DNA from: Promethearchaeota archaeon
GTDB lineage: Archaea; Asgardarchaeota; Lokiarchaeia; Sigyniarchaeales; SOKP01
Length of the DNA stretch: 12,095 nucleotides
Assembly (NCBI GenBank): GCA_018238625.1
Contig: JABCSY010000114.1
Location: 1 to 12,095 of the forward strand
Direction of reading: 5' to 3'
Below the pieces are notes generated by a model. That model was not told the origin of the DNA and searched no databases. It was given only the letters and a program-made list of their open reading frames with translations. The position numbers were made by a program, and so were the translations under genes. Of this stretch, positions 1 through 10,732 are shown piece by piece. Numbering within the stretch: the first letter of the stretch is position 1; each line of letters begins with the position of its first letter.

Positions 1-485
1 AGAAAAACGACTTAATCGTTAAATACGATTTGATTCCTTTTGCCAATTCAATTAAAGATAAGAAGTATTCTAAACTCGCCCAAAAAATAAATATCGCCTC
101 AAAAAGTGGAGATATTAAAACGCTTGCAAGTATTCGAAATAATCTAATTGAAGATATAGATTTCTCTAACAGAGCATATTTAATCAATTTATGTAATCAA
201 GAATTATACAAGCAAACAGTTACAGACTATATTTTTAAATATATGAACAATAAAGAGATTTGGGCAGATGTTGCGAGCGAATTCCCTAAATTGGATAAGT
301 CATTGCAAGAAGCCTTTAGTAGAAGACAAACGAAACAAATTAGAACTGAAGATTTATTGATCGAAATTAACGTTACAGGGACTAACGACGATTCCTTAGT
401 CAATATTCAAATTTCAGGGGGATCAGAAGCTTTAAAATTAAAATCTATTTTAGATAGTCTTAACCATATCCAGAAACAAGATTAA
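1..485 (+). CDS. 3' part of a gene running in from the left edge; hypothetical, possibly the C-terminal region of a MoxR-like AAA ATPase partner of the vWA protein
   Basis: The frame is open from base 3 (KNDLIVKYDLIPF...), so TTG at 30 is probably not the true start; stop TAA at 483-485. No diagnostic motif is visible. The AAA assignment rests only on context (vWA genes commonly follow MoxR ATPases). Confidence 0.7.
   Translation, partial: KNDLIVKYDLIPFANSIKDKKYSKLAQKINIASKSGDIKTLASIRNNLIEDIDFSNRAYLINLCNQELYKQTVTDYIFKYMNNKEIWADVASEFPKLDKSLQEAFSRRQTKQIRTEDLLIEINVTGTNDDSLVNIQISGGSEALKLKSILDSLNHIQKQD
430..441 (+). repeat. Left copy of 12-bp direct repeat (attL-like core) CTTTAAAATTAA
   Basis: Identical to 4551-4562; marks the start of the duplicated segment. 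Confidence 0.7.
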
Positions 486-502
486 AAGGATTTATTAGAG
501 TA

Positions 503-562
503 ATGGCACAATCAAAAAGAAAAAGAAGAATCAAAGAGAAGAAAGAAGAATTAACTTCTTAA
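503..562 (+). pseudogene. 19-codon remnant resembling the N-terminus of the vWA gene
   Basis: ATG at 503 gives MAQSKRKRRIKEKKEELTS*, versus vWA start MSKSRKKRIRSAPKKDLDK. It lies 17 nt after the gene1 stop, against 18 nt in the right-hand copy. Confidence 0.6.
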
Positions 563-623
563 GATATTTTTAGAAGTTTCACTTCAAGTAAGTTGGTCAA
601 TGAAGGGAAATAATTTTTTCGTC

Positions 624-685
624 CAAGAATTTCCACATTGCTCGCATTCAAGTTCAAAATCAAGCGAGTATGTTAGGAATTCTTG
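624..685. other. Imperfect inverted repeat overlapping the SIR2-TPR stop codon
   Basis: CAAGAATT(624-631)/AATTCTTG(678-685), CC/GG, ACAT/ATGT and CTCGC(641-645)/GCGAG(664-668), with bulged bases and an 18-nt loop. Confidence 0.45.
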
Positions 686-3033
686 ATAGATTTAATATTT
701 TCTTTAATAATCTTAGTATTTGGTGATTCGCTTAATCCTAGTACATTGAGAATTTGTAGTGCTTCTTCATACCGTTTCAATGCCTCTGGATAGCTCCCTT
801 GTGCTTTATAAATCATCCCGATGTTGTTAAGAACAGTGGCCTTTCCATTCAATTTCCCTAATTGTTCTGTTATTTGTAGTGCTTCTTCATACCGTTTCAA
901 TGCCTCTGGATAGCTCCCTTGTGCTTTATAAATCATCCCGATGTTGTTAAGAACAGTGGCCTTTTCATTCAAATTTCCTAATTGCTCGTCGATTTGTAAT
1001 GCCTCCTCATAGCACTTCAAAGCTTCCGAAATTTTCCCTTGTACTCTATAAATCATCCCGATGTTGTTAAGAACAGTAGCCTTTCTGTTCAAATCTCCTA
1101 ATTGTTCGTCGATTTGTAATGCCTCCTCATAGCACTTCAGTGCTTCTGGATAGTTCCCTTGTGCTTTATAAATCATCCCGATGTTGTTAAGAACAGTAGC
1201 TTTCTCTCTTAAATCTCCTAATTGCTCGTCGATTTGTAATGCCTCTTCGTATCGCTTCAATGCTTCCGGAATTTTCCCTTGTGCATCATAAATACTTCCA
1301 ATATTATTAAGACGGATAGCTTTTCCCGAAAGATCTCCCAATTGTTCATCGATCTGAAGCGCTACTTCGTATCGTTTTAGGGCTTCAGGATAATTTCCTT
1401 GTGTTTCATAAATGACTCCAATATTATTGAGATGGGTGGCCTTTTCCGAGAGATTTCCCAATTGTTCATCAATTTGAAGTGCTATTTCGTATCGCCTTAA
1501 GGCTTCAGGGTAGTTTCCTTGTGCTTTATGAATCCCTCCGATGTTGCTAAGAATAGTAGCCTTTCCGTTCAAATCTCCTAATTGATCGTTGATTTGTAGT
1601 GCCTCTCCATACCGCTTCAATGCCTCTGGATAGCTCCCTTGTGCTTTATGAATCCCTCCGATATTGTTAAGAACAGTAGCCTTTTCATTCAAATTCCCTA
1701 ATTGTTCCTCGATTTGTAGTGCCTCCTCATACCGTTTCAATGCCTCTGGATAGCCCCCTTGTGCTTTATAAATCTCTCCGATGTTGTTAAGAACAGTGGC
1801 CTTTCCGCTCAAATCTCCTAATTGCTCGTCGATTTGTAGTGCCTCCTCGTATCGCTTCAATGCCTTTGGATAGTTCCCTTGTGCATGATAAATCGTCCCG
1901 ATGTTGCTAAGAACAGTAGCCTTTCCACTCAAATTTCCTAATTCTTCAGCAATTCTCAAACTGTTTTCTGAACATATCATTGCTTTATCATAAATATCCA
2001 AATCCCAATATATTTTATAAGATATATAATACTTCATCATTTCACTTGGTAATGTAATATTTTTTCCTAGCCAATCCAACGCATTAACAGAGAATTTTTC
2101 TGAGCTTAATTTAGGTTTGGCATCCAAAATCTCATTTACTATTCTATGTGTATTCGCATTAACTTTATATACAGGAACTTTATTATTCATTCGCTTAATT
2201 TCAACTAAAATTTGATCGACTTTGTCTAATTCTTTTGGTTCATTTATTACGTCTGTAGTAATTTTATAAATTAACTCTTTCCCCTCATCATCGTGAACAT
2301 AATTAATCCAAATAATATTGTTGAGATTTTTCAAAACTTGCAAAGTTGGAACGATATCAAAATCATCGCTACCAGAATAGCCCATTATCACTAAAGAGCG
2401 ATTCTCCGTGATTTCTGCGAATGCAGGCTGTTTAAAGGATTCAAGTTGAAATACATTCTCTCCTTCTTTATTCGAACCGAATGCTTTAATTGTTGCGATT
2501 AACGAATCTCGCGTAGATTTCTTTGTAATAATGTTTTTAGTGGAGCCATGAATTTTATACACAGTTTTCTTTCCTTTTTCTAGTTGTTCATATGGGTCTT
2601 GAAATTCTTCAAAATCTTCCCGCGTTATCACAGGAACGATATCATCATCTGGAACTCCCAATTGTTGTAAAGCGTATTCTATTAAAAAGTCAAAATTAGT
2701 AGTTATTACAAAACTCCCTCTATTGATCATATCAGCGAGAAATAAATGCTGAGTATTCGGCTTATCACATAGTCCATAATAATCAATAATTTTTAATTTC
2801 TTATCTAACTGATCTCGTACTATCTCCACAAGTGCCTCAAATCGAAGATCTTTTAGCTTTTTAATGCCTTCAATTTCTAAATCAGCACACGTATAATCGA
2901 TAATCGCATCCATCATTGCCCTCCCTGCCGGTAAACACGATGGAGGATCAATGGAACATCCTGCACCAGCAAGGAATGTTAACTTCGAATCTGGGGTAAT
3001 TAAATCCCTAATTTTAAGATTTGTAAGTCTCAT
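673..3033 (-). CDS. SIR2-like (SIR2_2 type) NAD+-consuming domain fused to a C-terminal TPR array
   Basis: Sirtuin-fold motifs FLAGAGCS, ITTNFD, YKIHGS and MGYSGSDD, followed by ten 40-aa TPR-like units (KATVLNNIGxIYxAQGxYPEALKRYEEALQIDEQLG). Confidence 0.92.
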   Translation of the reverse strand: MRLTNLKIRDLITPDSKLTFLAGAGCSIDPPSCLPAGRAMMDAIIDYTCADLEIEGIKKLKDLRFEALVEIVRDQLDKKLKIIDYYGLCDKPNTQHLFLADMINRGSFVITTNFDFLIEYALQQLGVPDDDIVPVITREDFEEFQDPYEQLEKGKKTVYKIHGSTKNIITKKSTRDSLIATIKAFGSNKEGENVFQLESFKQPAFAEITENRSLVIMGYSGSDDFDIVPTLQVLKNLNNIIWINYVHDDEGKELIYKITTDVINEPKELDKVDQILVEIKRMNNKVPVYKVNANTHRIVNEILDAKPKLSSEKFSVNALDWLGKNITLPSEMMKYYISYKIYWDLDIYDKAMICSENSLRIAEELGNLSGKATVLSNIGTIYHAQGNYPKALKRYEEALQIDEQLGDLSGKATVLNNIGEIYKAQGGYPEALKRYEEALQIEEQLGNLNEKATVLNNIGGIHKAQGSYPEALKRYGEALQINDQLGDLNGKATILSNIGGIHKAQGNYPEALRRYEIALQIDEQLGNLSEKATHLNNIGVIYETQGNYPEALKRYEVALQIDEQLGDLSGKAIRLNNIGSIYDAQGKIPEALKRYEEALQIDEQLGDLREKATVLNNIGMIYKAQGNYPEALKCYEEALQIDEQLGDLNRKATVLNNIGMIYRVQGKISEALKCYEEALQIDEQLGNLNEKATVLNNIGMIYKAQGSYPEALKRYEEALQITEQLGKLNGKATVLNNIGMIYKAQGSYPEALKRYEEALQILNVLGLSESPNTKIIKENIKSIKNS
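745..1944 (-). repeat. Coding tandem repeat, 10 x 120 bp (TPR units)
   Basis: Strict 120-nt periodicity without indels; 752-844 is identical to 872-964 (93 bp). Confidence 0.95.
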
Positions 3034-3085
3034 TAATTCGATCTCTTCAAAATAGTTATTGAATAGTATTAAATCTGATCTATTC

Positions 3086-3099
3086 GTATTTAACCTTTA
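3086..3099 (-). promoter_or_regulatory. BRE/TATA-like element TAAAGGTTAAATAC upstream of SIR2-TPR; exact copy at 4542-4555
   Basis: Purine-rich run plus TTAAATA on the minus strand, about 55 nt before the ATG at 3033; the 14 bp are repeated exactly. Confidence 0.45.
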
Positions 3100-3174
3100 T
3101 GTCAGAATATCATTTTAAACGAAAAAAATAAGCGTAGACAATTAATATCCCATTCTTCTAACTAAATATAATTT

Positions 3175-4296
3175 CTATACGCGATAACTAGTCCTAATTC
3201 CACCTATCTTCCAAAAACGAATATATCCCGTGTCATCACCGGTATAAAATCCTAAAGGATGCGGATATAATTTTCTAATTAATGTGTCCTCCATGTAAAA
3301 ATGAAAGATTTTACCATAATCTTCATTCCAGAATGCCCAGACTCCGCCATAACCAGTTAGAACAAACCAATCACGGAAAAGTATCAAGTTAGAAGCTATA
3401 GTTGCACCTCTAACTGAAATTAAGTCCCAAATGCCTTTTTCTATAATATTACCCGTTTTTGAATTTAATTGAAAATAATTTCCTTTTATATCCACAATCG
3501 TGATCTTTTCAATATCCCCCAAAATCGTTTCAATCTTCTCTTGTGTCAATTTAATTCTCCATTGAATATCTCCCTCTGGAGTAATAGATGCAGTTTCCCC
3601 TTTCCAACTCGTAGCAATTATACTGTCAAATCCCAATTCCATTGTCGAAATCGGATTGTTGAAAAGATTGATACTTTTAAGAATTTCATCTTTCTCAATA
3701 TCCCAGATTTGGATAGTCCCTGTTTTTAATCCTAAATATAATCGATCTTCTATTCGAGAAATTCCCATAATTGATGATGGAATAGATTTTTTCCATAGAA
3801 TTAGGGGTTTCTCTTTATTATTCCAATCTAATTTTACAAGATAATATGAATGTGGTCCATTTATAGATTCACTTTCCCTCAGACCAAAATAAAACGTGTT
3901 CTCGGGGGTAACACACCCTTTTGAACAGTATTTTAAAGGATAAGAACATTTTATAACTAATTCTTCACCTTTTAATAAAGAAAATTCGCCTATTTCATAT
4001 GTGCCAAAATAATAACCATGAGTTGGCGTATCCATGAATAAATCGCGTATATATTGAGCTCCTGTAGCAACTCGACTTCTTTCTGATGCTAAATCAATAG
4101 AGATACTGTCAATTAATTTGTTGCTTTTATTATAAACGCGAAAAGAATTAAATGTTACTTTTGTAATATTTGCTATTCTTTCTCTATAAGATCTTGAACA
4201 TACAACTTTTTTAGATTTCAAGTCGAAACATTGAATACTGTCAGAGGAAAATAGAACTTCCATCGAATACTCTGGTATGTATTCAACTCGCCTCAT
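3175..4296 (-). CDS. WD40/PQQ-like beta-propeller protein
   Basis: Blade-like segments LYLGLKTGTIQIWDI, IIATSWKGETASITPEGDIQWRIKL and FYTGDDTGYIRFWKI; beta-rich pattern throughout. Confidence 0.75.
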   Translation of the reverse strand: MRRVEYIPEYSMEVLFSSDSIQCFDLKSKKVVCSRSYRERIANITKVTFNSFRVYNKSNKLIDSISIDLASERSRVATGAQYIRDLFMDTPTHGYYFGTYEIGEFSLLKGEELVIKCSYPLKYCSKGCVTPENTFYFGLRESESINGPHSYYLVKLDWNNKEKPLILWKKSIPSSIMGISRIEDRLYLGLKTGTIQIWDIEKDEILKSINLFNNPISTMELGFDSIIATSWKGETASITPEGDIQWRIKLTQEKIETILGDIEKITIVDIKGNYFQLNSKTGNIIEKGIWDLISVRGATIASNLILFRDWFVLTGYGGVWAFWNEDYGKIFHFYMEDTLIRKLYPHPLGFYTGDDTGYIRFWKIGGIRTSYRV

Positions 4297-4375
4297 ATCG
4301 TTTATTTATTTTAGTTACATAAAAAGATTTACCTAATTGTAGTAAGAATATATATATTATTTTAATTTGTTCTTA

Positions 4376-4522
4376 ATGTATTCTATGTTTTTTCTAAAAG
4401 TGTTGGCATTTGCAGTTTTATCTAATCCTAATTATACTGAAATATTTTTAACAGAACGAGGGAAGGAATATATAGAATTAATGTCTTATATTAGAGATTC
4501 CTACAAAAGTCATAAATGTTAA
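4376..4522 (+). pseudogene. 48-codon ORF resembling the C-terminal wing of a winged-helix protein (fragment or small protein)
   Basis: MYSMFFLKVLAFAVLSNPNYTEIFLTERGKEYIELMSYIRDSYKSHKC*. IFLTERGKEY matches the LTxxG wing motif of MarR/PadR-like wHTH proteins. Below the ORF-track size cutoff. Confidence 0.35.
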
Positions 4523-4549
4523 ATTTATAGAGATTAATATAGTATTTAA

Positions 4550-4606
4550 CCTTTAAAATTAAGGGAGATTTTAGACGAATTAGATTATATTCATAAGGAG
4601 GAATAA
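4550..4606 (+). pseudogene. Displaced paralogous 3' end of gene1 (attR-side fragment)
   Basis: Reads PLKLREILDELDYIHKEE*, colinear up to the stop with gene1 ALKLKSILDSLNHIQKQD* (9 of the last 17 residues identical, most others conservative). It has no start and is preceded by an in-frame TAA at 4547-4549. Confidence 0.75.
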
Positions 4607-4624
4607 TCTACAGAAATTTTTGAG

Positions 4625-6355
4625 ATGTCGAAATCTAGAAAAAAGAGAATAAGAAGCGCGCCAAAAAAAGATTTAGATAAAAAAGAACAACATATCATTG
4701 AATTAGCGAAAATAGCTTGGGCTAAAACGCAAAGCGAACTCTTTTTTCCTCCTTTAGATACGCCTAATTTTATATTCGATTACTCAAATTTAGAAGGCTT
4801 CTACATAGATCCCCAAAACAAATGGCAGATTACTATGAATTTAGCAAATACGCCTATTTTCATAGAAGATATAGACTATATCAATTACTTTCGCGCTATC
4901 ACCCTTCATGAAGTCTCCCATTACCAAATTATTCCGTATGACGGTTTAATAAACGCTAAATTACTTAAAGCGGCGATAAAATATGTTAATGAGAATTTTG
5001 CTCCGATAGTAGTTAATGTGTTCGCGGATTTTATTATTGACGCTAAACTTCACAAAAAGAATCCCGATTTGATCTCTTGGGAGTTGAAAAAGACTTATCA
5101 GCACATTTTAGACAAAAATCAAAATAACATGAGCGAATTTTCAAAATTTCTATTTCGGTCTTATGAACTGCTCTTAAATATAAAGATTACTGATAATGGC
5201 TCGTTCTCCAGCGTGGAAAATGTAGCTAAAAAAGTAGTGAATGTCGTGAAAAAGAATTTCGAAGATGAGACATTATGGGAAGAAAAAGTAGCTAAAACTG
5301 CTTATCATTTAAGAACGCTGGTTAATAACACATTTACTATGGTTGGAACTGGCGTTCGTCACGGTAAAGAAAAACCAGAGAGGAAATCTCCGGGGAGAGG
5401 TGGGTCAAAAATCGAGTTTCCCGAAGACATCTTAGAAGTAATGGATAATCCATTAGAGAATAAAAATTTAGATAAGTTAAAAAAAGATAATAACGACGAA
5501 TTAAGGCAAAAAGCAGAAGATTTTGCTAAAGAAACGCCTTATTCCGAATTTGGAGCTCCTGCCGGCCAAGCAGGAATATTAATTGACGGAAATCCATTAG
5601 CTACTTGGTATCGAGGTTTGGCTAAAGACTTAATTGAAATTAAAATATACGAAGAAAAACCGGGAGGACAAATACCCGTTTATCCCGAAGTTTGGCGCTT
5701 AGGAGAACCAATAGATGAGCTAGATATTGTCCAGACCCTTCTAAATAGCCCAGTTATTATTCCAAATATTACAACGCGAAAATGGGCGAAAAAAATAGGA
5801 CAAGGGCATTTAATGGAAAAAGAAATACCAGATTTACTCATTGTAATCGACTCTTCTGGATCTATGAAATGGAATTACCGAGCAAAATCTTCTAGAGGGA
5901 TATATCACACTGCTCTGTTAGCTTCTTTTGCAGCACTTCATTTTGCTGCTAATAAAGGCGTTAGGTTTAGTATAATTAATTTTTCTAACAGAGCAGATAT
6001 ATGTGATTGGACAAACGATTACCAAAAAGCAGAAAAAGTTTTGCTCAGGTATCAAGGGGGAGGAACGCAATTACCCGTTAAAGCTATAATTAAACAGAGC
6101 GAAAAATCAGAAAGAGAAACTCTAATTTTTATTATTACTGATTTTGGAATTTATAATTGGGGTAGTGCTAAAAAAACCCTTTTAGATTTATCCAATAAGG
6201 GACATAAAGTTGTAGGTTTTTTTATTGGCGCCTCAAAAATACCACAAGAGCGATTTAAAAGTTTACTTAGCAAGATAACATTTTATGCGATTAAAAATAG
6301 TAAAGATTTAATCAATTTGGTAATTTTTGAAGTAAAGAAGTATTATTTATCGTGA
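4625..6355 (+). CDS. Zincin-like metallopeptidase domain plus C-terminal von Willebrand factor A domain protein
   Basis: HExxH motif (TLHEVSH) with downstream NVFAD; complete MIDAS: DSSGS, GGT, ITD. Confidence 0.88.
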   Translation: MSKSRKKRIRSAPKKDLDKKEQHIIELAKIAWAKTQSELFFPPLDTPNFIFDYSNLEGFYIDPQNKWQITMNLANTPIFIEDIDYINYFRAITLHEVSHYQIIPYDGLINAKLLKAAIKYVNENFAPIVVNVFADFIIDAKLHKKNPDLISWELKKTYQHILDKNQNNMSEFSKFLFRSYELLLNIKITDNGSFSSVENVAKKVVNVVKKNFEDETLWEEKVAKTAYHLRTLVNNTFTMVGTGVRHGKEKPERKSPGRGGSKIEFPEDILEVMDNPLENKNLDKLKKDNNDELRQKAEDFAKETPYSEFGAPAGQAGILIDGNPLATWYRGLAKDLIEIKIYEEKPGGQIPVYPEVWRLGEPIDELDIVQTLLNSPVIIPNITTRKWAKKIGQGHLMEKEIPDLLIVIDSSGSMKWNYRAKSSRGIYHTALLASFAALHFAANKGVRFSIINFSNRADICDWTNDYQKAEKVLLRYQGGGTQLPVKAIIKQSEKSERETLIFIITDFGIYNWGSAKKTLLDLSNKGHKVVGFFIGASKIPQERFKSLLSKITFYAIKNSKDLINLVIFEVKKYYLS

Positions 6356-6391
6356 ATATTTATTGTAAGATCTAGTTAAAAAGATTTGTTT

Positions 6392-6655
6392 TCAATGCTG
6401 TTTATTCATTTCTCGCAAATACTGTTTCATAAAGTACCTTTGGCTTTCACAATACATCAATCTTTGATTATCATTTAAATGGGTGCATCTTTTTAAGACT
6501 GTTTGAATTTCTTCAAGTAATTTCATATTAGCTCTCTTGGCTCTTTCGGGCAGTTGATTTAACTTAGCCTCAATTTCTTTTTCGCTTATTTCTTCCTGAA
6601 ACAAATCTTTAAGATTGAGAATTGGTTCCGGATCACTTAACCTTGAAGTTATCAT
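6392..6655 (-). CDS. Small hypothetical helical protein (87 aa)
   Basis: ATG preceded by an SD-like GGGAGA; fills the gap without overlaps; protein-like charged composition; no recognisable motif. Confidence 0.65.
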   Translation of the reverse strand: MITSRLSDPEPILNLKDLFQEEISEKEIEAKLNQLPERAKRANMKLLEEIQTVLKRCTHLNDNQRLMYCESQRYFMKQYLREMNKQH

Positions 6656-6870
6656 AATTTTCTCCCTAAGGAACTTTGAATATGGTCTCTTCTACTTCAC
6701 AAGATATTCAGATAATAGCTGTGAAATATCTACGTATAATAAAAAACAGAATTCTTCTTCTTTTGAAACTAAGTAATATGCGTGTAACACATTTATAAAC
6801 TTAATAAGCCGACTAATTAGATCTTACCTAAATTTGCATAAAAAAGATCGAATTTAACAATAATGTCAAT

Positions 6871-7641
6871 CTATAATAAAGCTAAGCTTAAAAACATAAA
6901 AAACATTCCTGCTATGATTCCTAAAATGGATAGATGTTCGTTTCCAAAAATGCGAGAAGCGGGAAGTAATTCATCTAACGAAATATAGACCATAAATCCT
7001 CCGACAATCGCTAACATTGCTCCTAATAAAAGGTCATTGACAAATGGAAAAAGAATTAAGCCAAAAACGAGAGCTCCTATTGGTTCACTGATTCCAGAAA
7101 AAAACGACCAAAAGAAAGCTTTTTTTCTACTTTTAGTCGATGTGTATATAGGAATAGCTACGGCAATACCTTCAGGAATGTTATGGAGTGCGATAGCAAA
7201 CGCCAATAAAAATCCAAGCTCAACATCCTTTAAGGTACCCGCAAAGGTAACCATTCCTTCTGGGAAATTATGAATAAACACTCCTAGCGTAATTAATAGG
7301 GAAGTTCTTCTAAAATTAACGCTCTCTATGGATTTTCCTTTTTTTTCTTTTGATTTTGGTTCTTCAAATTCATAAATATGTGAAATAGAGACGTCAATTA
7401 AGAACATTAATCCCATTCCTAAAAAGAAAAATAAATGCCCTAGAATAAACCCGCTAGAGTCTATTCCTTGTTGTAATAATTCTACAAATGAAACTAGTAC
7501 CATCACTCCCGCTGAAAAACCCATAATAAGCGAAATAAATTTTGAGCTAGGCTTTTTAACTAAAATCGCAATAAAACTACCGATCGTTGTTGAAAGTCCT
7601 GCAATTAAAGTTAAGACAAGAGCAAGTACAAAAGATTCCAT
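6871..7641 (-). CDS. zupT: ZIP-family divalent metal transporter (ZupT/GufA type)
   Basis: Multiple hydrophobic helices; signature HNFPEG and HNIPEG, SGISEPIGA and ELLP. Confidence 0.93.
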   Translation of the reverse strand: MESFVLALVLTLIAGLSTTIGSFIAILVKKPSSKFISLIMGFSAGVMVLVSFVELLQQGIDSSGFILGHLFFFLGMGLMFLIDVSISHIYEFEEPKSKEKKGKSIESVNFRRTSLLITLGVFIHNFPEGMVTFAGTLKDVELGFLLAFAIALHNIPEGIAVAIPIYTSTKSRKKAFFWSFFSGISEPIGALVFGLILFPFVNDLLLGAMLAIVGGFMVYISLDELLPASRIFGNEHLSILGIIAGMFFMFLSLALL

Positions 7642-7703
7642 TTTTAATCCACTTTCTATGTTATTTTGTATGTTGTAATTATGTAATATTATTATTAAGA
7701 ATA

Positions 7704-8348
7704 TTAAAAGTTTTTATCAATCCAATCTTCAAATTTTATCTTTCTGAGTTGTTCTGCCCAAAGTACCTTGATATTGGGTTCGTCAGGAAGCAAGTTTTGA
7801 TTTTTTAAAAGTTCATAAAGTTTCTCGAGGGCTTTTTCGACTAAAATACCGTACAGATTAGTTTTTTCTTCGTAAATACCAAGTTTCTTTTTAACCTCTT
7901 CCTTGGTATCACTAATAACTTTTACCCAACTCTCCGCAAATTTTAAAACGTATTCTTCCATATCGTTTAAGCTTTCCATAGTAAATATTGGAAAAGTTAC
8001 TATGTACTTGTCTTCCTGTAATTTAACTAAATTGTACCATTCTAAATTTAACAAGTGATTTTTGATTGTTTCTTTAGTCCATTGATAATTTAGCTTACAT
8101 TCGTACTCTTCTTTTGATATTATCAGAGGTTTAGGTGAAAATTTAAGCGTTTCATACAACTCTTCGAATGTTTTTGGACTTTTAGCGAGTATAATTAGAA
8201 TTTCTCTTCTTACTTTATTATCCAGAACCCAAGGAACTTCTGACTCGTCCCAAGGTTGCGTTGTTCCAAAATCAAACCAAGGTTCAATCTCATCGACGTT
8301 AATTTTCCCTCTAAAACGGTAATTCTGGTACTTCGTGTTCTCTTTCAT
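7704..8348 (-). CDS. Winged helix-turn-helix (ArsR-like) domain protein, putative regulator
   Basis: LDNKVRREILIILAKSPKTFEEL ... TIKNHLLNLEWYNLVK pattern; SD AGGAGG upstream of the ATG. Confidence 0.65.
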   Translation of the reverse strand: MKENTKYQNYRFRGKINVDEIEPWFDFGTTQPWDESEVPWVLDNKVRREILIILAKSPKTFEELYETLKFSPKPLIISKEEYECKLNYQWTKETIKNHLLNLEWYNLVKLQEDKYIVTFPIFTMESLNDMEEYVLKFAESWVKVISDTKEEVKKKLGIYEEKTNLYGILVEKALEKLYELLKNQNLLPDEPNIKVLWAEQLRKIKFEDWIDKNF

Positions 8349-8402
8349 CCTTTCCTCCTTCCCTCTTACATTAATATTTATCCATCTATAATTAAATTTT
8401 CC

Positions 8403-8921
8403 CTATAATACTTCAAGTATTTCTGGGAGCAATAGCCATCCTTTTCTTTCGTGAATAACATTCCCTTGTTCGTCAATAACAAATTGTCCTGGACCCTGTT
8501 TCTCCCAACCTTCAAACTCACCGTGTTTAAGTCCTAATTTCCCAGCTTCCTTCAATTTGCTTCTAACTTTTGTTACTGCACCAGCGGTCATTAATCCTAA
8601 TCCGTATTCTTGGTATAACTCCTCTTTCGTTGATGGTATTACAGGAAAGTCAATTTTATATTTTTCAATAAACTCTTTAGCGACTTTTTCGCCAGATTGA
8701 GTTACATAAAGCAATTTTACTCCTTTACTTTTAATTTCAGCGACTTTTTCCATTAATATGTTCAAATCCAATTGACAAATTGGACATCCAAAGTATCTTG
8801 AGAAAATCAAGATAATCTTTTCTTTTCCTATCAATTCTCCTAAATCAATCGTTCCAGCGTTGTAGGAATCAATTTTGAACAAAGGAGCTTTATCTCCTTC
8901 CTTTATTTTATTCTTACCCAT
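8403..8921 (-). CDS. Peroxiredoxin-like AhpC/TSA (redoxin) family protein with CxxC
   Basis: GDKAPLF N-terminus, FSRYFGCPICQ, and GQFVIDEQGNVI. Confidence 0.88.
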   Translation of the reverse strand: MGKNKIKEGDKAPLFKIDSYNAGTIDLGELIGKEKIILIFSRYFGCPICQLDLNILMEKVAEIKSKGVKLLYVTQSGEKVAKEFIEKYKIDFPVIPSTKEELYQEYGLGLMTAGAVTKVRSKLKEAGKLGLKHGEFEGWEKQGPGQFVIDEQGNVIHERKGWLLLPEILEVL

Positions 8922-8966
8922 TTTTAATTTTCACTTTTCTTTCTTATTACCTTAAATTTGATTTAA

Positions 8967-9938
8967 TTATAATTCTACTTCCTCTTGAAGCATTGCTTCT
9001 ATAAGAACATCTGTTGCTTCTTCTTCGGATAAACCCTTAGCCATAAGCTCATCTAACCATTTTTGTGGAAACCTTCCTAAAGAAGCTTCGTGCGAAACGC
9101 TTGAAGTTGGGTCGGTAGCTCTAATGAAAGGACGAGCTCTACATATTGAACCATGTCCAAGAACAATCTCGCTACATTCAACGTGACCGTTACAGTAAGG
9201 TGCATTTCCTTCTGTAATTCCATACATTAAAACTTCCCCTCCATCCTTTGCGGCAGCTTTCATTTTAATAACGCTTCTAGCATTTTCTCCTTCGAGAAAA
9301 ACTGAATCTCGAATTCTTATTGAGTCTTTAATATTTTTTCCAAAAGCTTTAACATTTGATCTAATAACGCTATTCTTCATTGCGTAAATGTCAATTAATA
9401 TTTTAACCCTACCTGGGGTTCCTTTGGTAAGATTAAAGTTATTTTCAAAGACGCTATTTTCTCCAACATAAATATAATTTACGGGAGCAACTAAAGCTCC
9501 ACTCTTTTCACCATGGTAATGGGTTTCACTATATGTAAAATTACAATTTTTCCCGATGTAATAATGACCAAACATTTTGTGAATTAACCCGTTTGCGTTT
9601 GGAAAGCTACAATGAGCTTGAATTTTTACGTCTGTATTATCTTCGGCTATAATTCTTGGAAAAATCTCTTGAACCCCGGTCTCCTTATTTATTCCAAAAC
9701 ATAAGTGAATGGGTTCTTCAAGCTTAGTTCCTTCTTTTATAACGACATCAGCAACTATTCCATTTGGAATTTCGCGCCCCTTTATTACTATTCCCTCAAC
9801 TTGTTCGATCCCGGATATTTTGTTAAAGTCTAATAAGAGTTTGGCGCCTTTGCCGTGCCCCGGTAAAAAATCTCGAATATCTATGTTATAATCTTCAAGA
9901 CTTTGTAATATATCTTCAGGATAATCGCCATTTTTCAT
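8967..9938 (-). CDS. sufB: SufB/SufD-family Fe-S scaffold (SmsB-type)
   Basis: PIHLCFG, AHCSFPN, GHVECSEI, HEASLGR and LMAKGLSEEEA; short archaeal-type form; ATGA overlap with the upstream ATPase gene. Confidence 0.88.
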   Translation of the reverse strand: MKNGDYPEDILQSLEDYNIDIRDFLPGHGKGAKLLLDFNKISGIEQVEGIVIKGREIPNGIVADVVIKEGTKLEEPIHLCFGINKETGVQEIFPRIIAEDNTDVKIQAHCSFPNANGLIHKMFGHYYIGKNCNFTYSETHYHGEKSGALVAPVNYIYVGENSVFENNFNLTKGTPGRVKILIDIYAMKNSVIRSNVKAFGKNIKDSIRIRDSVFLEGENARSVIKMKAAAKDGGEVLMYGITEGNAPYCNGHVECSEIVLGHGSICRARPFIRATDPTSSVSHEASLGRFPQKWLDELMAKGLSEEEATDVLIEAMLQEEVEL

Positions 9939-10732
9939 GACAAGCCCTCTTCTTTAAATATTCTATCAATATAATCGTCATCAAAGCAAACTGCTCCATT
10001 TTTGTACAAAGTTCTTTTGCAAAACTCTTTAAGCCCTGCCTTAGCACAATATCTAAGCATTACTTTCGGAAACACGTCAGTAATAATATGGTCGCCACGC
10101 CATAACAATGTTCCATAATCTGCTACCATCCCAATGTCTTCGCGATGAGTTATCAATAAGATCGTCATGTTTAGCTTTTTAATCTTTTCAAAAATATTCA
10201 TAAAGTCCTCCAGCACTATAAAATCTAAACCGCTGTCAGGTTCGTCCAATATAATTAGTCGGGGCTCCATTGCGATAGCTGCAGCCAATTCTACTCTCTT
10301 TCTTTCTCCTCCGCTTAGTGATTCGTCAATAGTTCGGTTATAATACCTTTCGGGCTCTAAATTGACGATCTTTAAAGTTTCAACGACTTTCTCTCTTATT
10401 TTTGATTTGTCTTTCATACCCAAGGAAATGTATTTATGCACAGATAAACCGTCGATTCTCGCAGGTTCTTGCCATGCTAAAGTAATTCCAAGCCTTGCTC
10501 TTTCAGTTATACTCAAGTTAGTAATGTCAATACCATCGAAGCATATTTTTCCTTTTAACGCTTTATAATCCCCTAATCCCATAATGGTATATGCTAAGGT
10601 TGATTTACCGGAACCATTTGGTCCTATGATAGCGTGAATCGAACCTTCTTTAATTCCAAAAGAAACTTCATTTACAATGACGCACTTCTGGTCAAGAGTT
10701 GGAATTGTTAATTCATTAATTTCTAATAGCAA
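9935..10732 (-). CDS. sufC: SufC-like ABC ATPase (SmsC-type)
   Basis: Walker A GPNGSGKS, LAWQEP Q-loop, LSGGERKR signature, Walker B ILDEPDSGLD, ITH switch; TTG start with GAGG SD. Confidence 0.9.
   Translation of the reverse strand: MLLEINELTIPTLDQKCVIVNEVSFGIKEGSIHAIIGPNGSGKSTLAYTIMGLGDYKALKGKICFDGIDITNLSITERARLGITLAWQEPARIDGLSVHKYISLGMKDKSKIREKVVETLKIVNLEPERYYNRTIDESLSGGERKRVELAAAIAMEPRLIILDEPDSGLDFIVLEDFMNIFEKIKKLNMTILLITHREDIGMVADYGTLLWRGDHIITDVFPKVMLRYCAKAGLKEFCKRTLYKNGAVCFDDDYIDRIFKEEGLS

Follow-up and report, generated by a model that had tools for sequence, protein, structure and literature searches.

Elements that carry a replacement 3' end for the gene they enter are known from Escherichia coli, where e14 and phage 21 occupy icd by means of an integrase and a fixed attachment (att) core. 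Bacteria also have transfer and defence hotspots between conserved core genes; these are mostly empty, hold varied cargo in a minority of genomes, and turn over by recombination in their flanks. A third kind of event, homology-facilitated illegitimate recombination (HFIR), uses a homologous anchor at one end of the incoming DNA and microhomology (3-10 bp) at the other, giving an insertion together with a deletion; experiments have described it in transformable bacteria (PMC3240628). The same model has been proposed for type VI secretion system (T6SS) effector-immunity arrays in Vibrio and for the displacement of rhs 3' ends (PMC5361080). Here, we consider an island in an Asgard archaeon (Promethearchaeota archaeon, GenBank assembly GCA_018238625.1), found between gene1, which encodes a MoxR-like ATPase, and a gene for a von Willebrand factor A (vWA) protein. 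The window, meaning the whole stretch analysed, comprises positions 1 to 12,095 of contig JABCSY010000114.1.

Gene1 in this window is a hybrid, native-type to base 401 and foreign-type from base 419. The native 3' end that it lost stands on the far side of the island, which extends over about 419-4550 and has two cargo genes on the strand opposite to gene1 and vWA. The island was probably acquired by recombination anchored in homology, with a second join at short homology, an HFIR-like event rather than the arrival of an element with an att site and an integrase. In what follows, G000 is the genome of this window, and g28 is another genus of the same family (G103, G098, G147, G104). The parts of the locus are these.

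3-485, plus strand: 3' part of gene1, 160 codons, a MoxR-like AAA_5 ATPase gene cut by the contig start.
402-418, plus strand: left crossover interval, 17 nt identical in the native and donor types.
419-556, plus strand: foreign junction tract, with 22 gene1 codons and the stop, a spacer, and 18 vWA codons.
557-672, no strand: non-coding DNA inside the island, of an origin without match in the genome and fetched loci compared, where one 32-nt match was all that was found.
4436-4550, plus strand: right terminal module of the island, recognised by its likeness to occupied g28 loci.
4551-4562, plus strand: right copy of a 12-mer, CTTTAAAATTAA, where the donor module joins the recipient's gene1 3' end.
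4551-4624, plus strand: displaced native gene1 3' end (17 codons, stop at 4604-4606) and an 18-nt spacer.
4625-6355, plus strand: intact native vWA gene, 576 aa (Pfam VWA_2 9.7e-6, VWA 8.9e-4).

The left edge shows a change of affinity within a single gene. Bases 260-401 are identical to G016, from the window's own genus, at 135 of 142 positions, and at most 74% identical to g28. Bases 419-556 are identical at 130 of 138 positions to the intact gene1/vWA junction of G103, of genus g28, and reach at most 76% identity with the other 22 junctions compared. The 17-nt spacer in the island is identical to that of G103, and the likeness ends after the first 18 codons of the G103-type vWA. In the alignments, the last native-specific base is 401 and the first donor-specific bases are 419, 422, 425 and 431; thus, the left crossover falls at 402-418, upstream of the 12-mer. 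Donor-type bases begin 11 nt before the left copy of the 12-mer, so the crossover was not confined to the identical core. A switch of this kind inside gene1 is a homologous crossover within a common gene. The first-pass annotation, made from the letters of the window alone, had suggested that the incoming DNA brought a diverged junction from another lineage, and the match to G103, which belongs to a different genus, agrees with it.

The right edge is the counterpart. The closest relatives of this genome are G016, G026 and G008; in these, gene1 is about 95% identical, is intact, adjoins vWA, and ends in LKLREILDKLD[YF]IHKEE (LKLREILDKLDYIHKEE). Window bases 4551-4624 match their native junctions at 69 of 74 (G016), 67 of 74 (G026) and 66 of 74 positions (G008). 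Because of this match to intact junctions, 4551-4606 is identified as the native gene1 3' end; it is this right tail, not the one now on gene1, that fits the closest relatives. The vWA protein beyond it is 95-97% identical in amino acids to the same three. That gene1 has a foreign 3' end, with the native end displaced to the far boundary, had been proposed from the window alone, and is borne out by the junctions of G103 and G016.

Between the cargo and this native end lies the module at 4436-4550, which is 83% identical to G147 (over 113 nt) and 86% identical to G104 (over 94 nt). Both are occupied g28 loci, and the matching DNA is situated there 110-155 nt upstream of their vWA; the module is also 95% identical in a metagenome contig, L139. 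An Rfam search and RNA folding of the module were null (z = -0.42). The donor-type module runs into the 12-mer, where native-type sequence starts. The right join falls in an identity of 12-13 nt, the donor sequence there being known only from the relatives G147 and G104. Only about 11 nt of recipient DNA (the equivalent of 419-429) were replaced, making this an insertion coupled to a deletion. The apparent duplication of the junction is, on these alignments, a donor copy of the junction standing beside the recipient's copy.

Empty alleles are common. Gene1 abuts vWA in 17 of the 19 same-genus loci fetched, with a gap of 11-21 nt. A survey of the family paired the coordinates of gene1 and vWA in rows of family f1 only, with gene1 reaching at least residue 565, vWA beginning by residue 30, and both on one contig and one strand; families f2-f4 and truncated rows were left out, and 95 genomes were kept. 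The gap is 28 nt or less in 75 of these, 45-185 nt in 4, and 0.6-9.1 kb in 16. The empty allele that the first-pass annotation expected, with gene1 adjoining vWA, is therefore the state of most relatives (75 of 95).

The locus could, of course, have been put together by the assembler. The metagenome-assembled genome (MAG) behind the window has 4.29 Mb in 201 contigs, with completeness of 97.9% and contamination of 7.6%. A chimeric contig in a mixed bin would be in keeping with that contamination (7.59%), with a second gene1 3' end, 94% identical, on contig C75 of the same bin, and with the start of the window at base 1 of its contig (C110), where gene1 runs off the end. An in-situ tandem duplication that later diverged is the other form of this explanation. 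Logan contigs from four runs of four studies were aligned to window 1-6400; these report presence only, and one run may be the source sample. The left junction is bridged in X1 (408-747), X6 (360-823) and X7 (360-692), the right junction in X1 (2867-4652) and X2 (1977-4652). Continuity across both junctions, which had been named as a point to confirm, is found in contigs from four studies. Further, L139 reproduces the right junction type and contig C122 of G064 the left, and the left junction copy is 94% identical to the junction of another genus, which in-situ divergence cannot give. An artefact of either form is scarcely credible.

The empty form is present as well. Two runs, X2 (depth 5.6) and X7 (depth 81.7), have contigs that join 431 to 4553 and skip the 4121 nt between. 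Contigs of X1 and X2 track the window to 418 and then read native TGGTTCTG, and an X1 contig reads native CAAATTTCAGGTGGTTCTGAAGCC directly before 4553. An excision product would read as a hybrid, with donor-type GGGGGATCAGAAGCT and then TTAAAATTAAGGGAG. The end of the X1 empty-form contig, the only such end that is readable, has native GGTGGTTCTGAAGCC; judged by these bases, the X1 form is an ancestral empty site and not an excision product. The 431-to-4553 joints of X2 and X7 do not reveal native or donor bases at 419-425, and fit an ancestral empty site or excision alike.

Other carriers have other breakpoints. Gene1 on C75 and on C122 of G064 is 98% identical between the two, and upstream of gene1 C75 is only 82% identical to contig C89. 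Both have the same foreign tail, ending at the stop codon and followed by a SIR2-TPR gene. They leave the native type from about 365, some 55 nt further upstream than the window does, through a stretch unlike both the native type and G103; the right junction of G064 is not assembled, so its left junction type alone is compared. C75 and C122 represent a second lineage, and the presence of C75 in this bin fits its contamination of 7.6%. C75 is 94% identical to window 1-486 and its TPR gene has fewer repeats. Its full-length gene1 (575 aa) matches Pfam AAA_5 at 1.2e-13, a MoxR/dynein-type ATPase domain.

Two metagenome contigs add to this. L139 shares the right junction of the window; a further SIR2-TPR gene is inserted in it at 4431, and its orphan tail has lost 24 nt. 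L142 carries the propeller cargo gene (91% identical in amino acids) and a vWA region 92% identical to window 4736 to 10696, preceded by about 40 initial vWA codons and upstream DNA of g28 type. Here, a native-like vWA body has a g28-type 5' end, and therefore the right crossover lies inside vWA. The 0.8-kb insert of G004 encodes MazE and PIN proteins, and on each side of it stands a copy, from the same clade, of the final 13 codons and the spacer (z = 12.3). Among 17 occupied loci checked, only this duplication and a 22-nt tandem in G154 stand out; junction duplication is not a general feature of occupied loci.

The insert in G028, which is of the same genus as the window, measures 3 kb and encodes a PD-T4-4_A-like ATPase (1.8e-36). 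Its left tract is identical to the junction of G098 (g28) at 115 of 130 positions, making it a second, independent g28-type tract. In this locus (L056), no ATG, GTG or TTG is present near the expected vWA start (5720-5760), and gene1 has an in-frame TGA. Between its cargo and vWA, G028 retains decayed internal remnants of a further gene1 copy (aa 372-418) and a further vWA copy (aa 16-81). Such remnants are what a Campbell-type event would leave, in which a circle of foreign gene1, vWA and cargo integrates by a single crossover in gene1, two chimeric copies of the region result, and most of the foreign vWA and of the second gene1 is later deleted. Linear DNA in E. coli frequently forms a circle that integrates through a single crossover (PMC3240628). 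The window, however, has no further gene1-like sequence between the cargo and 4551 (tblastn), the deletion would need to have stopped no more than about 30 nt from the crossover, and the right module is collinear with occupied g28 loci up to the 12-mer, which a random deletion would not give. A Campbell-type origin is thus unlikely for this island. As a set, breakpoints that vary and flanks of donor type point to recombination in flanking homology, as judged from sequence comparison, and not to an att site.

The 12-mer drew attention to the locus at the outset. Two exact copies of CTTTAAAATTAA, and no more, are present in the window, at 430-441 and 4551-4562, with a spacing of 4121 nt. Both begin at the second codon base, in agreement with the identical codon phase first noted. 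The left gene1 tail reads LKLKSILDSLNHIQKQD (stop 483-485) and is followed by a 17-nt spacer (486-502); the right tail reads LKLREILDELDYIHKEE (stop 4604-4606) and is followed by one of 18 nt (4607-4624). The tails of equal length, the two spacers and the two basic N-termini beyond them are all as first described. The short vWA-like open reading frame (ORF) after the left spacer, MAQSKRKRRIKEKKEELTS, likewise exists, with its start at 503 rather than the 504 first given; it ends at 562 (stop 560-562), and its 18 foreign vWA codons are 503-556. Excision of 430-4550 in silico reproduces the in-frame gene1 that had been predicted from loss of the 4121 nt, ending in SGGSEALKLREILDELDYIHKEE and a stop.

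None of this makes the repeat telling by itself. In 1-6500, with the TPR array left out, there are 12 exact 12-mer pairs, against 7.3 +/- 3.8 in 100 first-order Markov simulations; the expected occurrence of this particular word is 0.06 per window. The 12-mer repeat on its own is unremarkable in this AT-rich DNA. Compared with each other as DNA, the two junction copies show no significant likeness: their best local alignment has z = 1.2, a score that 27 of 200 shuffles also attain. As this internal test is not significant, the case rests on comparison with other genomes. These show which parts of the flanks are native and which foreign, where the breakpoints lie, that empty alleles exist, and that the site has been occupied repeatedly. 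A 14-mer, GTATTTAACCTTTA, at 3086-3099, in the region upstream of the SIR2-TPR gene, recurs at 4542-4555; the likeness does not extend beyond 14 nt (z = 2.9; 5 of 300 shuffles), and no argument is based on it.

The first-pass annotation had drawn the parallel with e14 and phage 21, and had offered three ways in which an island with no recombinase might arise: mobilisation in trans, decay of an element, or entry by homology-facilitated recombination. As a site-specific integrative element moved in trans by an integrase whose gene lies elsewhere, with the 12-mer as its att core, the island would account for an exact 12-mer at both boundaries in the same codon phase, for a replacement 3' end with a displaced native end, and for the 431-to-4553 contigs of X2 and X7. 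Against this, no recombinase domain was found by Pfam in either island ORF or in six further ORFs of the window, which agrees with the earlier description of a recombinase-free cargo island; nor was there a tRNA gene or an Rfam family in the window. Donor-type bases begin at 419, upstream of the supposed core, the readable empty-form end in X1 is native (GGTGGTTCTGAAGCC) and so ancestral, the boundaries differ in C75 and G064, L142, G004 and G028, and 12-mer repeats are common in this DNA. These facts speak against the e14/phage-21 mechanism, and we regard a site-specific element as very unlikely. Of the three proposals, homology-facilitated recombination fits best; the in-trans or att type is disfavoured by the crossover at 402-418 and by the variable boundaries.

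The gene1/vWA junction is occupied again and again. Among the 95 family genomes, 16 have an insert of 0.6-9.1 kb, with about 12 distinct cargo sets when G089, which is split over two contigs, is counted. The sets are as follows.

SIR2-TPR and propeller genes: G000 (this window).
PD-T4-4-like pair: G028.
MazE and PIN: G004.
ParE: G151.
1024-aa WD40 protein, MmgE/PrpD and ParE: G090, G089.
ABC exporter pair: G147, G132, G126.
NosD-ABC and membrane proteins: G104.
Trio of methyltransferase, CdhD-like/4Fe-4S membrane protein and F420H2-reductase-like protein: G006, and inside a 10-gene set in G138.
Hybrid histidine kinase: G145.
Ras-like GTPase: G076, G078, G074.
Oxidoreductase: G091.

The trio stands, in oriented coordinates, at 2980-5413 of L057 (G006) and 4481-9339 of L100 (G138), in two genera, and its membrane protein has two 4Fe-4S motifs. 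The Ras/Roc-like small GTPase, of 180-188 aa and on the opposite strand, is found in L103-L105, from three genomes of one genus.

Different cargo at the same point, which had been named as something to look for, is thus found (about 12 sets in 16 occupied loci). The suggestion of a defence hotspot holds in part. The site is a recurrent insertion site, but only about 4-5 of the about 12 sets are like defence or toxin-antitoxin genes (G000, G028, G004, G151, G090), the rest being transport, metabolic and signalling genes. The cargo is not mostly of defence genes, as that of a defence island would be. The gene1/vWA junction is a general insertion site, and "hotspot" is used here for recurrent occupation, not for a measured excess over control sites. 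No literature report on this locus was found, Asgard MoxR-vWA pairs included (supplements were outside the scope of the search), and among the papers listed on Asgard defence and integration hotspots none concerns it by title or abstract.

MoxR-vWA pairs with a variable third partner are described in conflict systems. It might be asked, then, whether gene1, vWA and the genes between them form such a "ternary" system, with a variable effector slot. In the genus, four loci are occupied, and three of them do carry defence-like or toxin-antitoxin genes. Elsewhere, however, the slot holds an ABC exporter pair, a Ras-like GTPase, a histidine kinase, MmgE/PrpD, oxidoreductases and ion transporters; it is empty in 75 of 95 loci, the cargo genes are often on the opposite strand, and the scars at the junctions are those of insertion into a formerly tight pair. 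A ternary system is a very unlikely account of this locus.

Some loci depart from the pattern in other ways. In L108 (G136:C132; 392-3010, oriented), the first 214 codons of a broken gene1 are followed by a 651-aa TPR gene, upstream of a full gene1; this arrangement hints that a displacement of the same sort took place on the 5' side. In L110 (G071:C40), the gene1 match stops at residue 325 and the vWA match begins at residue 32 about 100 nt on, which appears to be a deletion spanning the gene1/vWA junction. L062 (G022:C116) has no gene1 or vWA match, yet its 4468-4519 (52 nt) are like the intergenic region of C75, and its 4603-4670 (68 nt) are 88% identical to the 3' end of the propeller gene. 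The vWA N-termini, as seen in the 5' ends of L057, L097-L102, L106 and L142, are of two types, one long and basic with IAWAKT, the other shorter with IAFNKALAEF; among the loci read, the shorter type is mostly in occupied ones, with G142 of the shorter type but empty.

The vWA protein of the window (4625-6355) has an HEVSH motif, like HExxH, near residues 95-100 in its N-terminal half, where no Pfam family is matched. A ribosome-binding site for vWA within the gene1 tail was considered and rejected; the GGAGG there is separated from the start codon by about 23 nt, too great a distance. For gene1, vWA and the propeller protein, NCBIfam gave no further information, and a scan for promoters and terminators gave counts not above those of shuffles.

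The cargo of the island consists of the following.

673-3033, minus strand: cargo gene 1, 786 aa, with SIR2_2 and about 10 TPR repeats of 120 nt (Pfam).
3034-3174, minus strand: upstream region that travels with SIR2-TPR paralogues, at 87-92% identity in G061, L147 and L139.
3175-4296, minus strand: cargo gene 2, a 373-aa beta-propeller protein, from weak Pfam WD40/PQQ matches and a structure model.

The 786-aa protein matches Pfam SIR2_2 (PF13289) at 1.8e-12 over residues 109-224, with 48 bits against a cut-off of 24.5, and TPR_12 at 2.5e-94; its match to the PADLOC SIR2 model is weak (3.6e-5). It contains TTNFD and KIHGS, putative SIR2 catalytic motifs (Asn, His). At 632-2011 there are ten tandem 120-nt TPR units, neighbours being up to 87% identical, and in this stretch C75 and contigs from other runs break off or read differently; the number of repeats may be uncertain. 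Of the 154 genomes of the order, 132 have matches to the SIR2_2-TPR family (G049, G077 and G041 are examples), as many as 14 in a single genome, which makes this a large lineage-specific expansion. The gene closest to that of the window comes from G061 (C46), a genome of the recipient's genus, where it stands at an unrelated locus; the proteins are 92% identical over the SIR2 part, and the DNA likeness (86% over 691-3169) covers only the gene and its upstream region.

For the 373-aa protein, the AlphaFold model is all-beta (pLDDT 65.7, pTM 0.60), and all Protein Data Bank (PDB) matches listed by Foldseek are beta-propeller/WD40 proteins (E about 1e-11, TM 0.3-0.5). Within the genus, 1 of 42 genomes has this gene at full length; across the order, 7 of 154 genomes have a match. 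Cargo and frame thus differ in their histories, and SIR2-TPR paralogues seem to come and go in the pocket (L139, L144, L147).

Together, SIR2_2-TPR and the beta-propeller protein are plausibly a predicted NAD-consuming defence module. The cargo resembles SIR2 anti-phage proteins (ThsA-type SIR2_2, DSR, SIR2-STAND) in joining SIR2_2 to a repeat "sensor" region, here of TPR. It differs from them in its weak PADLOC match, in that no Thoeris-typical partner is seen beside the SIR2_2-TPR gene, and in its many paralogues per genome; its function is a prediction only. A literature search on Asgard SIR2-TPR defence gave as its only match a paper concerning a human SIR2 homologue.

From these comparisons we infer a direction and an order of events, and an enzymology. 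In most genomes of the family, gene1 and vWA are 11-20 nt apart. In this lineage, DNA from a different genus would have entered the junction, its donor already having accessory genes between its own gene1 and vWA. On the left, a homologous crossover within gene1 at 402-418 would have brought in 22 foreign codons, the foreign spacer and 18 foreign vWA codons. On the right, the join would have been made at the 12-13-nt identity (CTTTAAAATTAA) common to the end of the donor island and the recipient's gene1. This identity lies about 11 nt downstream of the left crossover, and in this way the recipient's last 17 codons, its spacer and vWA would have been kept behind the insert. An element-encoded recombinase would not be needed, and cargo could turn over within the pocket.

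Several facts weigh against this account. The comparisons found no donor, which would be a g28-like genome carrying this cargo between gene1 and vWA, and G103 is itself empty. The closest SIR2-TPR gene is elsewhere in the recipient's own genus (G061); cargo and frame differ in history, and therefore a single event does not suffice. At 419, 422 and 425, upstream of the 12-mer, the donor-type bases occupy third codon positions and are synonymous; in principle they could be native polymorphism or the outcome of later gene conversion. The identity of 12-13 nt at the right exceeds the 3-10 bp typical of HFIR, and the recipient deletion of about 11 nt is far below the roughly 1 kb reported for it. 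The model leaves the origin of the first insertion in the donor genus unexplained, and an HFIR product would depend on RecA/RadA and on the uptake of linear DNA, here by uncultured archaea. The preferred reading, recombination anchored in gene1 with a short-homology second join, is held as probable with these points in view.

A wider proposal is possible, although we hold it as more doubtful than not. In it, the gene1/vWA junction is a family-wide exchange platform, across which accessory genes pass between genera as "homology-armed" cassettes. One arm would be the gene1 3' end with the 5' fragment of vWA; on the opposite side, the arm would be a conserved terminal module ending in a relic of gene1. 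If this is true, islands would spread and swap cargo by the homologous recombination of the host alone, as a recombinase-free analogue of an integron or island-integration site in archaeal relatives of eukaryotes.

The locus offers inter-genus gene flow resolved to the breakpoint in Asgard archaea, where the movement of accessory and defence genes is little known and genetics is not yet possible. A tight two-gene pair can be a recurrent landing site, and its scars record donor, recipient and crossover points. Such a site is useful for finding new accessory and defence genes in Asgard archaea, and for measuring recombination between diverged lineages in metagenomes.

Set beside what has been described before, this is a new archaeal case of a known type of event at a known type of site. 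As with e14 and phage 21 at icd, the target gene is kept intact by a replacement 3' end and the native end stands at the far boundary; unlike them, the island has no integrase that was found, its left crossover lies outside the 12-mer, and its boundaries vary from carrier to carrier. As with bacterial flanked hotspots, the same two flanks enclose differing cargo in a minority of genomes and nothing in most; here, however, the site is inside a tight two-gene pair, heterologous junction copies remain as scars, and the exchange is between genera. The displacement of 3' ends proposed for T6SS and rhs loci is alike in its conserved upstream anchor gene, its incoming 3' end with new genes, its old 3' part orphaned downstream, its lack of an element-encoded recombinase, and the building of arrays by repeated events (PMC5361080). 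Compared with those cases, the present one has an Asgard host, a MoxR-like ATPase rather than a toxin gene as its anchor, only 17 orphaned codons, a second join of 12-13 nt that may be a relic of the same gene, only about 11 nt lost, and cargo that is heterogeneous.

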